DNA from: a virus | Virus record (IMG/VR): IMGVR_UViG_3300012682_000002 | Span: 1 to 51,574 of that record | Reading direction: 5' to 3' (one strand) | DNA: 51,574 nt | Shown here: positions 2,702 to 44,439 of the stretch, piece by piece | Layout: every line of letters starts with the position of its first letter | Position numbering within the stretch: position 1 is the stretch's first letter | The notes under the pieces: model-generated | What the model was told of the DNA's origin: nothing | Database searches by the model: none | What the model saw: only the letters and a program-made list of their open reading frames with translations | Position numbers and translations under genes: made by a program

Positions 2702-4099
2702 CTAGCTCACCACCGCCCGGTACTGTGCCGCCGTGGGCGCGGTGGCGAATCTAATTGTGCATGTGTTCGTGCTCGTGCGCTCGACGATGGCGTTGACCGT
2801 CTCCCGATCGCCAGAGTTGCGGAACACCTGGACGGTGACATCGTAGCTGCCGATATTGTGCGTCAGCACAAAGGCCGTCGCCGACGCATCGCCCATGTCA
2901 AAGCCTTGCGGCGCGGCGCGGACACCGAGACTGGTGCGCGCGGTCGCCGCTGTTGTACCGGCCGTGCCGCCGTTGGCGATCGGCAGGGAGCCAGTCACTT
3001 TGGTCGTCAGATCAATCGACCCGGCGAGCATGGCGTTAGTGACGCCGAGCGCCTTCACCCGGAGGGCGTCGGCGTTGATCTCCAGGCTGGCGTTATCGGC
3101 GGCCACGTCGAGCGTGTCACCCGTCTTGGTGAGCGCGGCGCCCGCCGTAATCTGACCCGCGCCGCTGTACTGCGTAAAGACGAGCGCGGTCGTGTTGAGT
3201 GTGATCGGGTCATCGGTGGTGAGCACCCAGGCCGTATTGCCCTGGGACGTACCCTCACTCGCAAACGTATAGAGGCCCGCCGACACCTCGGCGGTGACGT
3301 CCGCATCGGTGGTGCGCGTCAGCGTCCACGGGGCGGCGCCGCTGCCCACGGCCGACACGGAGTAGAGGCCGTTGTTGGCGCCGGTCGCCTCATCCTTGAC
3401 GAGCAGCCGATCGCCCACGATCAGAGTGGCGCCATCCTGTGCGGCGAGCGCGGCATTCGCCGATGCCGTGAGCACGTTGCCAGACCGGGTATTGGCCGGC
3501 AACGCCGCCGTCGTGGCGGCGCGGACGCTGCCCTTGACGTCCAGCCCCTCGCGCACGGCCTGATCGACGTAGCGTTTATTGGCGCCGTCCGTGTCGGCGG
3601 TCGGGTCGGCGAGCGTGGTTAGCCGCTGCGAGTTGAGCGACACCACCGCCGTAGGCGCGGCCATCTGGTCGAGGCGTGAGGTCCGCACCTGCGTATCAAA
3701 GTCCGAGACGGTCGCGGCGAGCTGCGTGCCGGTGTGATTGGCGCGGGCGAGCGGATCGACGGCGAGTTTGTTCAACGCGATCGCGGCCGATGCGGAGATG
3801 TGCGCATTGGTGATGCCGAGCAAGGCAATACCGACAGTCGGGTCGGCGGCGGTACCGGCGATCGTGATCGTCGTGTTGGTTGCCGTCACGGACTGGACGC
3901 CGCTCGCGCTGGCGGTAGTTGTAATGACGTACGTCACGCTGCCAGCCCGGAATTTATAAAGGTTTGTCGTGGTGTTGAGCCAGAACAAGCCATCGGCCGG
4001 CGTGGCGGGGTCGGAGGCCAGCATGTGCAGTCGCACATTCTGGATCTCCAGGCTATTCATATCGACCGGAGACAGGAACGGAATCACGCCGGTTGCCAT
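2702..4099 (-). CDS. Tail fibre protein
   Basis: 465 aa. The N-terminus (MATGVIPFLSPVDMNSLEIQNVRLH..DGLFWLNTTTNLYKF), NKRYVDQAV and LPIANGGTAGTTAATARTSLGV are classic phage tail-fibre motifs. Confidence 0.8.
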   Translation of the reverse strand: MATGVIPFLSPVDMNSLEIQNVRLHMLASDPATPADGLFWLNTTTNLYKFRAGSVTYVITTTASASGVQSVTATNTTITIAGTAADPTVGIALLGITNAHISASAAIALNKLAVDPLARANHTGTQLAATVSDFDTQVRTSRLDQMAAPTAVVSLNSQRLTTLADPTADTDGANKRYVDQAVREGLDVKGSVRAATTAALPANTRSGNVLTASANAALAAQDGATLIVGDRLLVKDEATGANNGLYSVSAVGSGAAPWTLTRTTDADVTAEVSAGLYTFASEGTSQGNTAWVLTTDDPITLNTTALVFTQYSGAGQITAGAALTKTGDTLDVAADNASLEINADALRVKALGVTNAMLAGSIDLTTKVTGSLPIANGGTAGTTAATARTSLGVRAAPQGFDMGDASATAFVLTHNIGSYDVTVQVFRNSGDRETVNAIVERTSTNTCTIRFATAPTAAQYRAVVS

Positions 4100-42164: not shown

Positions 42165-42338
42165 CGGCGCTCCTGTATTTGTCTCCCCACCCCGCCCGCC
42201 CGCGCTCCCTGGGACGGGGAAGGTGGGGAGACGAGCGGCCGGGATGGGGGAAAGGCGGCACCCCTCCGCCGGACAGACGATCAAGACGAGGGGAGAGCAA
42301 CTTCGGCTCACCTTGATCGCCCGTCCAGGGGTGGGTAC

Positions 42339-43625
42339 CTACGTCACTCCGTCTCCCTCCAATCGCCGCCAGAGCTCGCGGAAGGCGGTTGCTGCTTGGA
42401 GGGGAACGACGGCGTTGCCGAGGGCGCGGAGGCGGTCGGTACGGTGGCGCATGGCAAGGTCCAGTTCTGCGGAAAACCTTGGAGCCACTCCACGAAGCGG
42501 GGCGATAAGCGCGGGCGCGAAGTCGGGCCGTTCGGCGAGGATGGCGGCCCAGGCGTCGCGGTCGGCGGGGCCGGGTGGGAAGGGCACCGATCCCAGTTGT
42601 TTGCCTGAGGGCCGAGTTTCATACCGGCGCTGTTCAGGGATGTGCGACCCGACGCGGCGTCGTTCGCTATCGGCGTCGCCCACATCGTCCGCGTCTGCTG
42701 ATCCAGCCCCATCTCGTCCACTCGGTCCCCGCCCCGGCTGCGGAAGCTGTCGGTTGCCGGGGTCTGCCAGAGCATCGCGCTGTCCGAGAGATTCAGTTGC
42801 CGGTGATGCTTGCCCACCTGCTCGCCCCGACGCAGCGCATCCAGCTCCGCTTCCGAGCGACTCCTCGGCCCGTCGCCGCTCAGGGCGTCCGGCGTCGGCC
42901 ACATCGCCGTTACTGCGGTCAGCGTGTCCGCCACGCCCCTCGTCCGACGCGCTCCGCTGCTCTCCGCGTCCTCCGCACGCGCCGTCGGCCACCGCTGCGC
43001 TACCTGTCCCAGCAGTGGTTTCCGTTCCCCATCCGTTCCCGTCGTCGATCCCCACTGGCCTGCGTCCGGGGTCGGCCAGGTCGAGTCCGGACCGTCGCGC
43101 AAGGCAGAACCATCGCTCGCGCTGATGGGAGGCACCCACGTCCGACGCACGAAGACTGAACCATTCCGCATCCCACCCGCTTTCGGCCAATGCTCCGAGA
43201 ACAACGTCAAGGTTCGGTCGAACATAGATACCTGCAACGTTTTCCAAGAAGAGGTAGCGCGCTCCCACGTCGTTAGCAATGCGGAGGATGTCAAAGAAGA
43301 GGGCGGATCGGTTGGCGTGGATGCCGCCGCGCTTACCGGCGGTACTGAGGTCCTGGCAGGGGAAGCCTCCGGCCACGAGGTCAACCGGCCCGCCTCGATC
43401 AACGACAGCGCGGAGCACATCGCCTCGGAAGGTGGCGATGTCAGACCAGATAGGGCATGGAGATAAGGAGCCGTCCGCCATGCGCGCGACCAGGACCGCG
43501 ACGCTATAGGCTTCCCTCTCAATGAGAGCGATAGGCCGGCTGCCGGGAGCGGCGTGTTCGACGGCCAGTTCGAGACCGCCGATGCCGCTAAAGCAGCCGA
43601 GGTAACGGAGGGGACGGATATCCAC
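42339..43625 (-). CDS. DNA (cytosine-5)-methyltransferase (frame A; the middle motifs lie in a second frame)
   Basis: ORF 42339-43700 with a likely GTG at 43625 after GGAG. FSGIGG (motif I), GFPCQDLS (IV), FLENV (VI), SHQRERWF (VIII) and RLRALGNAVVP (X). Confidence 0.8.
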   Translation of the reverse strand: MDIRPLRYLGCFSGIGGLELAVEHAAPGSRPIALIEREAYSVAVLVARMADGSLSPCPIWSDIATFRGDVLRAVVDRGGPVDLVAGGFPCQDLSTAGKRGGIHANRSALFFDILRIANDVGARYLFLENVAGIYVRPNLDVVLGALAESGWDAEWFSLRASDVGASHQRERWFCLARRSGLDLADPGRRPVGIDDGNGWGTETTAGTGSAAVADGACGGRGEQRSASDEGRGGHADRSNGDVADAGRPERRRAEESLGSGAGCAASGRAGGQASPATESLGQRDALADPGNRQLPQPGRGPSGRDGAGSADADDVGDADSERRRVGSHIPEQRRYETRPSGKQLGSVPFPPGPADRDAWAAILAERPDFAPALIAPLRGVAPRFSAELDLAMRHRTDRLRALGNAVVPLQAATAFRELWRRLEGDGVT

Positions 43626-43706
43626 ATGTATCACTCCAAGAGAGAGGTGACGGGGCGAGGCTGACGGAGCCGGGGTAGTAGCCCCAGCCAGCCTCGCCAC
43701 CGCCGG

Positions 43707-43907
43707 CTACGCGATCACCCGCATCACCAGCCGCACCGCGATGACGATCACGAGCCACGCAATCGCGCCGAGGATCGGCACGGTGACCAGCATCTCCATG
43801 CCGCGAAAGCGGTCGGCGTTGATACCGGTGTGTCGGGAGTGGGTCCAGTCTTCTCCTTCGTTTACTTCGTAGTCGGTTAGCGTCTTATCCCATTCCCACA
43901 TCAGCAT
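43707..43907 (-). CDS. Small membrane protein
   Basis: 66 aa. C-terminal TM LVTVPILGAIAWLVIVIAVRLV. Confidence 0.5.
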   Translation of the reverse strand: MLMWEWDKTLTDYEVNEGEDWTHSRHTGINADRFRGMEMLVTVPILGAIAWLVIVIAVRLVMRVIA

Positions 43908-44143
43908 TGGTCGGCCCCTCCCTGGTGCGCGCGGGCGGTGTCGGCGGCAGACTCGACGTCGTTGCGCCTCAGCGCCGCCGCCAGCCGCCGCCCCATCGGA
44001 CTGGTCGCCGGGAACGTCGGGATGGCCTGGACCACCGCCGAACGGAGCGCCGCGTTCTCGCTCAACAACGCGTTATGCGCGTAGGCGCTGTACGCGGCGG
44101 CGATGTGCGTGGGGCAGGTGAGAACGCAATCGCAGGTGGTCAT
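43901..44143 (-). CDS. Hypothetical protein
   Basis: 80-aa ORF, overlap-coupled. Confidence 0.45.
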   Translation of the reverse strand: MTTCDCVLTCPTHIAAAYSAYAHNALLSENAALRSAVVQAIPTFPATSPMGRRLAAALRRNDVESAADTARAHQGGADQC

Positions 44144-44439
44144 GCCATCACCTCCTCATAGAGATCGGCGGTACTGAGCGCCGGCGTGGCCGTGCAGCTG
44201 CAGCCGTCGGCGTGCCACGCCTCTAGCTCCCGCACATCGGCGGCGCGCTCGGTCTCCGCTGCCTGGACATTGATCCAGTGCCGCTGGCGAGGCGAGAGTC
44301 GCATCGCCTCGGCACGCCGCAACGTCGCGTAGGCGAGCAGGGCGGCGCGGCGCTGGTCGATGGCGACAGATGCGGTGGGGGCGAGTTCGCGGGCGGTTTC
44401 GCCGCGGGGGTCGGTAACGGTGAAGCAGTGGAGGATCAT
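44140..44439 (-). CDS. Hypothetical protein
   Basis: ORF 44140-44778 trimmed to ATG 44439 (ATGA overlap with the upstream stop). 99 aa. Confidence 0.5.
   Translation of the reverse strand: MILHCFTVTDPRGETARELAPTASVAIDQRRAALLAYATLRRAEAMRLSPRQRHWINVQAAETERAADVRELEAWHADGCSCTATPALSTADLYEEVMA

Follow-up and report, generated by a model that had tools for sequence, protein, structure and literature searches.

The C5-cytosine DNA methyltransferase M.EcoHK31I of E. coli HK31 is composed of two chains, both of which are required: α carries motifs I-VIII, the target recognition domain and motif X, and β, which carries motif IX, is encoded wholly in another frame of the α gene (PMC2836561; PMC3404938). 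M.AquI also consists of two chains, bearing motifs I-VIII and IX-X, respectively, and several monomeric C5-methyltransferases are active when artificially split (PMC2836561; PMC3404938). Overprinted genes that use two frames of one DNA stretch are known in viruses, for example the genes of phiX174 and the tymovirus p69/replicase pair (PMC8227390). Here we describe a methyltransferase locus at positions 42339-43700, on the minus strand, of the IMG/VR virus record IMGVR_UViG_3300012682_000002 (positions 1 to 51,574; this whole stretch of 51,574 nucleotides is called the window below). The locus is probably a fully overlapping, same-strand gene pair that gives a two-polypeptide C5-cytosine DNA methyltransferase.

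A sequence-only reading of the window had reported two open, overlapping minus-strand reading frames, A and B, and the list of open reading frames (ORFs) bears out their coordinates:

42339-43700, minus strand: frame A ORF, 453 amino acids from GTG 43700 (ORF list).
42339..43625, minus strand: frame A from its preferred start, the proposed α chain, 428 amino acids from GTG 43625 (gene call P0121).
42344..43627, minus strand: frame B ORF, the proposed β chain, 427 amino acids from ATG 43627, +1 relative to A (ORF list).

Frame B is nested inside frame A, and the overlap comprises 427 of 428 codons. All motifs that the sequence-only reading had quoted are present in the three-frame layout, and its central claim, that the family motifs of a C5-methyltransferase are divided between two open overlapping frames, is upheld. 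The segments of the two frames are as follows:

43092..43625, minus strand: frame A motifs I (FSGIGG), IV (GFPCQDLS), VI (FLENV) and VIII (SHQRERWF), a Rossmann-type catalytic large domain (Pfam, M.HhaI, AlphaFold2).
42585..43091, minus strand: frame A low-complexity filler rich in G/R/A/D/E, about 160-170 amino acids.
42510..42584, minus strand: frame A segment PFPPGPADRDAWAAILAERPDFAPA, conserved in frame A and overlapping the P/S/T-rich linker of frame B.
42402..42434, minus strand: frame A motif X (RLRALGNAVVP), which runs into C-terminal helices and aligns to KLERIGNGVVP of Streptomyces phage Vash gp33.
42509..43099, minus strand: frame B variable region, presumed to recognise the target, which contains five W-x-T-P-x-A-x-D repeats (conservation, third-position GC).
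42458..42508, minus strand: frame B LSPRFVEWLQGFPQNWT, the motif IX region, a conserved C5-methyltransferase motif preceding motif X.

This arrangement resembles M.EcoHK31I as described, in that frame A contains motifs I-VIII as well as X, and frame B, nested in another frame and equipped with its own start, contains the motif IX region. However, the predicted recognition domain of M.EcoHK31I resides in α and its β is small, whereas here the conserved variable region lies in the proposed β and the filler of the proposed α is predicted to be disordered. In addition, the overlap here takes in the whole gene, the two starts share one ribosome-binding site, and ancestral and overprinted stretches are combined in each product. 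M.EcoHK31I is part of a restriction-modification system, whereas the window gene is located in a phage early/replication-type region in which no nuclease was seen.

With M.AquI the locus would share a natural split of a C5-methyltransferase into two polypeptides. The M.AquI ORFs overlap at their ends and are not known to be nested. Moreover, both motifs IX and X of M.AquI are in the second chain, whereas the window has motif X in frame A and its motif IX region in frame B, so that the proposed α spans the whole gene and returns at motif X to the frame of its N-terminal half. The Vash gp32/gp33 pair, annotated as two methylase genes, is split in the M.AquI manner with β in the +1 frame and motifs IX and X in gp33; it looks like a one-shift relative or intermediate of the two-shift form found here. 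M.HhaI and M.HaeIII (PF00145) share with the locus the catalytic motifs, the large-domain fold and the order of motifs along the DNA, but they hold all motifs in one frame and one chain, whereas in the window PF00145 is matched over no more than the first half of the profile, by frame A. As in overprinted virus genes, a long same-strand stretch is open in two frames and every segment has an ancestral and a derived reading; unlike in those genes, the overprinting is reciprocal and the products are pieces of one ancestral protein rather than proteins of unrelated functions. Multispecific C5-methyltransferases of the Bacillus phage SPR/phi3T type contain a variable region of several tandem recognition modules, and the variable region described here, with its W-x-T-P units, may likewise be modular.

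Frame A is made up of a catalytic domain, a disordered filler and the helices of motif X. Motifs I (FxGxG, binding S-adenosylmethionine), IV (PCQ, with the catalytic Cys), VI (ENV) and VIII (QxRxR) follow one another in a single chain. The Pfam family PF00145 matches only residues 36-207 of frame A, corresponding to profile positions 6-166 of 324 (E 7.8e-28), and M.HhaI aligns with frame A (E 9e-13) only as far as its own residue 177; both alignments end at motif VIII. In the AlphaFold2 model of frame A (57 homologues), residues 1-180 have a predicted local distance difference test (pLDDT) score of 90-97, residues 188-346 fall below 50, the FPPGP...W..IL helix (residues 356-365) reaches about 72 and the helices of motif X reach 84-96. 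A Foldseek search with this model gave M.HhaI (1fjx, E 8.8e-14) and M.HaeIII as the best matches over about 190 columns. The filler, which contains the stretch GIDDGNGWGTETTAGTGSAAVADGACGGR, showed no alignment beyond low complexity, and neither the recognition region nor motif IX was found between motifs VIII and X of frame A with PF00145, M.HhaI, the alignments or AlphaFold2. Motif X (GNxVxP) is present at the C-terminus. The hallmark of frame A in this family, RVA(D/H)G(I/L)PxRVDR(L/I), is the -1 reading of EWLMGFPxGWTEL, as can be seen in the relative L034. An end-to-end match of frame A alone with C5-methyltransferases, which the sequence-only reading had set against its own proposal, was obtained for phrog_363 over residues 7-442, but in a trivial sense, because that family consists of annotated proteins of the same architecture, and Pfam and M.HhaI stop at motif VIII.

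Frame B is complementary in content. Over 43092..43625 it is an S/T/P/A-rich filler, the +1 reading of the catalytic domain; this largely unstructured N-terminal part of about 170 residues contains MWISVPSVTSAALAASAVSNWPSNTPLPAAGLSLSLR. The following variable region contains the repeat units TWPTPDAG, RWPTARAED, MWPTPDALS, LWQTPATD and MWATPIAND and a near-invariant unit, LWQTPATDSFRSRGGDRVDEMGLDQQ, and at least 20 of its positions are conserved at 90% or more. The number of W-x-T-P units ranges from one (L034) to five (the window) or more in relatives, and from their position and conservation the repeats are presumed to form the recognition domain. The LSPRFVEWLQGFPQNWT-type motif that comes next directly precedes motif X in single-frame relatives, and the same bases (42458-42508) score 89-94 in pLDDT when read in frame B, where they form the LSPRFVEWLQGFP helix, and below 50 when read in frame A, as APLRGVAPRFSAELDL. 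A Pfam scan of frame B gave no match, PF00145 included. Frame B has 251 homologues among called proteins (best E 6.5e-71) and matches phrog_1008, "DNA methyltransferase" (E 4.7e-30), and 2289 representative clusters match the B-type repeat region at E <= 1e-3. A recurrent AADSPAKTS-type motif of these homologues is the +1 reading of GGFPCQD(L/F)S; thus, these proteins all overlap a frame A methyltransferase gene. Long B-type proteins were considered as canonical fusions and set aside after a Pfam scan of 51 of them gave a single weak PF00145 match.

The base composition points to the same division. Between 43025 and 42576 the GC content at third codon positions (GC3) is 0.78-0.88 in frame B versus 0.54-0.68 in frame A, and ordinary genes in the window have values of about 0.77-0.88, which supports B as the coding frame of the middle. 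For two stretches that had been counted by hand and had favoured B, recomputation gave 0.90 for B versus 0.70 for A, and 0.76 versus 0.50. Over the catalytic domain (43092-43625), frame A has a GC3 of 0.56-0.78, under that of ordinary genes, and frame B is about equal there; this lowering fits a codon choice that is limited by a second frame.

The order of the segments matches that of enzymes encoded in one frame. An A-B-A chimera aligns with the canonical profile phrog_116 over residues 3-425 (E 2.3e-56), whereas frame A alone aligns over residues 29-217 only (E 8.4e-43). In Vash gp33 both parts are in one frame (...KLSPEFAEWMMGLEPGWVT...KLERIGNGVVP), and this protein aligns to frame B of the window over ...LSPRFVEWLQGFPQNW and to frame A over DRLRALGNAVVPLQAATAFRELW, with a joint E of 8e-8. 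In L032, a relative of low GC content, the methyltransferase is encoded in a single frame, with ...RRLTEIECELLQGFPQNWT...RYKQCGNAV on the same chain, and LSPRFVEWLQGFPQNWT of the window aligns to its "...LTEIECELLQGFPQNWT...RYKQCGNAV". The sequence-only reading had proposed that a coherent enzyme would run through A, then B, then A, and that path is collinear with Vash gp33, L032 and the phrog_116 profile. Judged by these alignments, the ancestral protein was read from frame A in motifs I-VIII, from frame B in the variable region and the LSPRFVEWLQGFP motif IX region, and from frame A again in motif X. Among matches to the chimera, P0121, with 100% coverage, appeared to be a single-frame homologue and proved to be the frame A protein of the window itself; the other high-coverage matches were A-type proteins aligned via low complexity, or hybrids.

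The same path could be followed within one translation event by double programmed recoding, with a +1 shift after motif VIII (about 43075-43100) and a -1 shift after NWT (about 42455), which would yield one A-B-A enzyme of about 430 amino acids. The collinearity just described speaks for this explanation, as does the fact that frame B of many relatives ends straight after GWTEL, where a return to A would be needed, and it would give the neatest protein. However, a scan for slippery sites over the whole gene was negative for X_XXY_YYZ heptamers in frame B, the +1 junction lacks a stop or hungry-codon context, homopolymers in the gene do not exceed 4, neither frame closes before the gene ends, whereas the zero frame of a recoded gene would close soon after the shift site, and the inefficiencies of two consecutive shifts would multiply. 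The segment 42510-42584 bears on the question as well. It had been described as looking familiar in frame A, and the FPPGP segment is kept in frame A of phi1026b, Yong-M2-251, L003 and L005, its consensus among 57 sequences is PPGPxDxxxWxxxLxxxPxLxPA, and it forms the helix of intermediate model confidence mentioned above. A simple A-B-A path would miss this conserved stretch of frame A. FPPGP...APA in frame A lies upstream of LSPRF...NWT in frame B, and both frames seem to be read through the same 45 or so codons. For these reasons, and for two more given below, recoding is an unlikely explanation.

An artefact of assembly, or a pseudogene with two recent frameshifts, could also account for two such frames, and in the window alone it is only moderately surprising that both are open (P about 0.03 and 0.1-0.3). 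This account is effectively refuted. The Logan assembly of run SRR6263248 is 100% identical to 42186-46625 of the window (4440 nt) and gives the same frame A gene call, P0121; the catalytic motifs are all intact; and the frame layout recurs in relatives, isolates among them, with both frames stop-free far past chance. In another assembly the gene caller reports only the last 196 residues of frame B (P0241, 42344-42934, minus strand), and public annotation of this DNA takes at least three different forms.

The recurrence was assessed in 31 related loci, drawn from IMG/VR, from metagenome contigs and from isolates, by searches that used three pieces of window protein. The A N-terminal, B middle and A C-terminal pieces lie in frames f, f+1 and f in 24 of the 31 loci (19 distinct sequences). 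The A/B(+1)/A layout is present in the isolates phi1026b, Yong-M2-251 and Acinetobacter phage vB_AbaM_ABMM1, and it persists at 30-50% amino-acid identity in dozens of loci. The annotated methyltransferase gp67 of Burkholderia phage phi1026b has the same low-complexity middle, and the +1 frame of this gene (L001 1445-3565) is open from an ATG 4 nt past the gp67 start into a ParB-like gene, forming an ORF of 706 amino acids. In three other Burkholderia phage records the whole +1 ORF is annotated "chromosome partitioning protein" and not methyltransferase. Similarly, the annotated methyltransferase of ABMM1 (42% GC; 1047-1961 of L050) contains an unannotated +1 ORF of 298 codons that starts 4 nt later and reads ...LWATPLARDFRSG...FPTPKASDG...LPTPTASMSKG...KLNPNWVEWLMGWPIGWTDL... 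A DNA-level search for close phage relatives gave only short matches of 70-79%, and a scan of genome contigs gave only six loci in metagenome-assembled genomes and no host link for the window. Two relatives depart in detail: in L044 (826-1002 and 1501-2142) the frame A match is split by about 500 nt between methyltransferase residues 60 and 68, a break that may be an insertion or an intron, and in L041 frame A contains a single in-frame stop (1732-1734) while frame B is open for 298 codons.

Both frames of the window begin within a few nucleotides of each other, behind a single Shine-Dalgarno sequence:

43623..43637, minus strand: shared initiation region, laid out as GGAG-TGATAC-ATGTG.
43634-43637, minus strand: Shine-Dalgarno sequence GGAG.
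43631-43633, minus strand: frame B stop TGA.
43625-43627, minus strand: frame B start ATG.
43623-43625, minus strand: frame A start GTG, 2 nt past the ATG of B and behind GGAG.

The GTG at 43625 is the more likely start of frame A than GTG 43700, because it lies 2 nt after the ATG of B, stands behind GGAG and is used by the independent gene call P0121 (428 amino acids, MDIRPLRY...). Twin starts of this kind, with the B ATG 2-4 nt from the A start and one Shine-Dalgarno sequence, occur in 14 related loci, either as ATGTGG (the B ATG, then the A GTG, as in the window) or as RTGAATG, where the A start is followed by a TGA that closes the upstream gene in the B frame and then by the B ATG. In a subgroup (L003, L005, L007, L010 and L011) frame B is closed at the gene start and opens about 45 codons in, at an internal ATG that follows an in-frame stop and a Shine-Dalgarno-like GGAG (GGA in L010), as in GGAGTGAAGCGTTATG. 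A frame B ATG was found in all A/B/A loci, either near the A start or internally behind GGAG, and recoding would have no need for a conserved B ATG with its Shine-Dalgarno sequence.

Whether the frames stay open by chance was evaluated by resampling synonymous codons in the conserved frame of each segment and counting stops in the other frame. In 17 of the 19 distinct loci no stop interrupts frame A over the middle that B encodes, where 3-6 stops are expected in most; the chance of a stop-free A middle is mostly 0.001-0.06 per locus and about 0.03 for the window. Frame B lacks a stop across the N-terminal part of A in 12 of the 19, the chance for the window being 0.1-0.3. The double openness of the window taken alone is therefore only moderately unlikely, and the family-wide evidence lifts it far past chance. 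The strongest case is a subfamily of short genes (L034, L036, L038, L039, L040 and L043; 240-330 amino acids, 45-55% GC), in which frame B opens at an ATG at the very start of the gene and remains open for 227-343 codons; 6.6-12.6 stops were expected there, and none of 1000 resamplings was stop-free. The 298-codon +1 ORF of ABMM1, at 42% GC, is a second telling example. Because an ORF that is not read need not stay open, ribosomes are likely to run through both frames from end to end. Recoding would predict no selection for an open A middle or for an open B over the catalytic domain, and both are seen.

Substitutions by codon position, counted in pairs that are about 64-98% identical, indicate what is conserved in each frame. 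In the N-terminal segment of A, they number 548/367/990 at A positions 1/2/3, and in the middle of B they number 185/196/326 at B positions 1/2/3. Synonymous changes of frame A in the middle are no commoner than those of the control frame, so that the middle of A is filler; it appears to be retained solely as stop-free sequence. In either frame, amino-acid selection is confined to the segments that belong to it. For the N-terminal part of B, the pair L034-L036 has 11/80 synonymous/non-synonymous changes versus 12/82 in the control frame and so shows no constraint on amino acids. Among the loci nearest to the window there is a synonymous excess, with 11/15 versus 1/25 for L014-L015 (Fisher p 0.002) and 21/67 versus 6/79 for L016-L026 (p 0.003), which is only a hint of constraint near the window, as the pairs share branches. 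When resampling was applied to off-frame amino-acid conservation, the control frame C was also above the null, owing to unsaturated synonymous sites and related loci.

These patterns weigh on a further explanation, in which frame A is the sole enzyme and frame B is either an overprinted protein of another function or an untranslated by-product. Relatives of only 240-275 amino acids carry the annotation of complete methyltransferases, most of frame B on its own is predicted to be disordered, and its N-terminal part shows no constraint in the short family, all of which would suit such a view. It is rather improbable, however, because frame A lacks the recognition region and motif IX, and frame B holds exactly the missing parts, including a motif that aligns to canonical enzymes. 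Furthermore, purifying selection in the middle acts on the B frame, which has its 2289 related clusters, and even the relatives of 240 amino acids keep the B frame fully open, with WPTPTARDWK...LSPNFCEWLMGFPIEWT.

The favoured reading is therefore a two-chain enzyme. In the proposed scheme, ribosomes would load at the one Shine-Dalgarno sequence GGAG and begin either at GTG 43625 or at ATG 43627. The former would give α, with motifs I-VIII, a disordered filler of about 160 residues at the usual site of the recognition domain, the FPPGP helix and motif X; the latter would give β, with a filler of about 170 residues, the W-x-T-P repeats and LSPRFVEWLQGFPQNWT of the motif IX type. These chains would bind to each other, and β would contribute the small domain, for DNA recognition, to the active site of α, as happens in C5-methyltransferases that are split naturally or artificially. 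The pair may have originated by two ancient compensating frame changes in a single-frame enzyme, after which selection would have held the off-frame stretches stop-free. The sequence-only reading had offered four explanations for the split, and they fare differently: two overlapping products is the one favoured here; assembly indels fail against the identical second assembly and the recurrence; programmed recoding is disfavoured, with no slippery heptamer, stop or homopolymer at the junctions and with unread frames kept open; and compensating frameshifts are probably correct as an ancient, fixed evolutionary origin, not as mutations of this genome.

Several points weigh against the two-chain enzyme. 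That both chains are made, that they bind together and that the complex methylates DNA are steps that we infer from the sequence. The resampling statistics treat the loci as independent although they are kin. In the AlphaFold2 model of frame B (50 homologues) the mean pLDDT is 52.8, residues 1-137 are mostly below 50, and only the LSPRFVEWLQGFP helix and one hairpin are confident; this confidence was too low for a fold search, the repeat region having no confident fold, and a profile of 50 B-type proteins had no match among PDB sequences even at E 10. The two-chain scheme offers no explanation of why β should carry an N-terminal filler of 110-170 residues instead of starting just before the repeats. 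In L031 and its relatives, stops fall within the middle of frame A, and poly-G tracts break up the B reading. Finally, forms in which the A and B segments are fused in one frame (P0122, P0158, P0080 and L042) could also be functional.

These fused forms and poly-G tracts lead to another explanation, frame-switching by indels, in which +/-1 indels or slippage rejoin the A and B segments and both frames are kept open for flexibility. A subgroup of 54-59% GC (L031, L012, L014, L015, L016, L017, L026 and L028) has 2-5 tracts of G7-G11 per locus, and L008 has one; in L031 they lie at 3013-3020, 3348-3356 and 3546-3554. The tracts are confined to the B-type region, with none elsewhere in the loci of about 6 kb. 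Among loci with 95-98% identity, homologous tracts vary between G7, G8 and G9, and it is at the tracts that the B-type reading passes into another frame; the tracts are either phase-variable switches or homopolymer sequencing errors. As for the natural hybrids, P0122 joins the A N-terminus to B at motif VIII, P0158 has the A N-terminus and filler and then the B C-terminus following GGG, a single frame of P0080 holds motif I, the body of B and motif X, and in L042 (1472-2242) B passes into motif X within EWLMG; these may be real variants, products of indel errors or decayed copies. The variable tracts and the hybrids speak for indel switching. On the other hand, the window gene has no homopolymer longer than 4 and is identical in a second assembly, most A/B/A loci, the window included, lack such tracts, and the differences in tract length may be sequencing errors, which makes switching an unlikely account of the layout.

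Upstream of the locus, the ORF at 44436-45764 (minus strand, 442 amino acids) matches transposase families (phrog_4285, E 2.9e-17), and its N-terminal half contains a diverged internal repeat of about 195 nt, 77% identical, at 45435-45743.

A literature search found no description of this architecture in phages, although its coverage was incomplete and REBASE curators may know of cases; the window gene is apparently a member of a large, undescribed family. There is perhaps an even chance that a large, unrecognised class of phage cytosine methyltransferase genes is reciprocally overprinted in this manner, with two full-length proteins produced in frames 0 and +1 of the same 0.7-1.4 kb, one half of each being ancestral enzyme and the other filler, that reassemble into one enzyme with a modular W-x-T-P recognition subunit, and with poly-G tracts that switch frames in a subgroup. 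Such genes occur in proteobacterial, cyanobacterial, acidobacterial and actinobacterial phage contexts and range from 42% to 70% GC. For the annotation of phage genomes, the present situation is that gene callers give one frame, or both as unrelated genes, the other frame being labelled "hypothetical" or "chromosome partitioning protein", and that methyltransferase catalogues built from frame A alone would list enzymes with neither a recognition domain nor motif IX. Specificity may be set or switched by how many W-x-T-P units there are and, in one subgroup, by the variable poly-G tracts. Provided that both frames are translated, the locus is a whole-gene, same-strand dual-coding unit, which in the window extends over 427 of 428 codons; for phages, it would rank with the longest regions known to be dual-coding on the same strand. 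The design of M.EcoHK31I, so far a lone curiosity, would then be common, and the family would provide a natural model of a protein that was split by frame changes and yet stayed functional, its off-frame sequence tamed to harmless filler.

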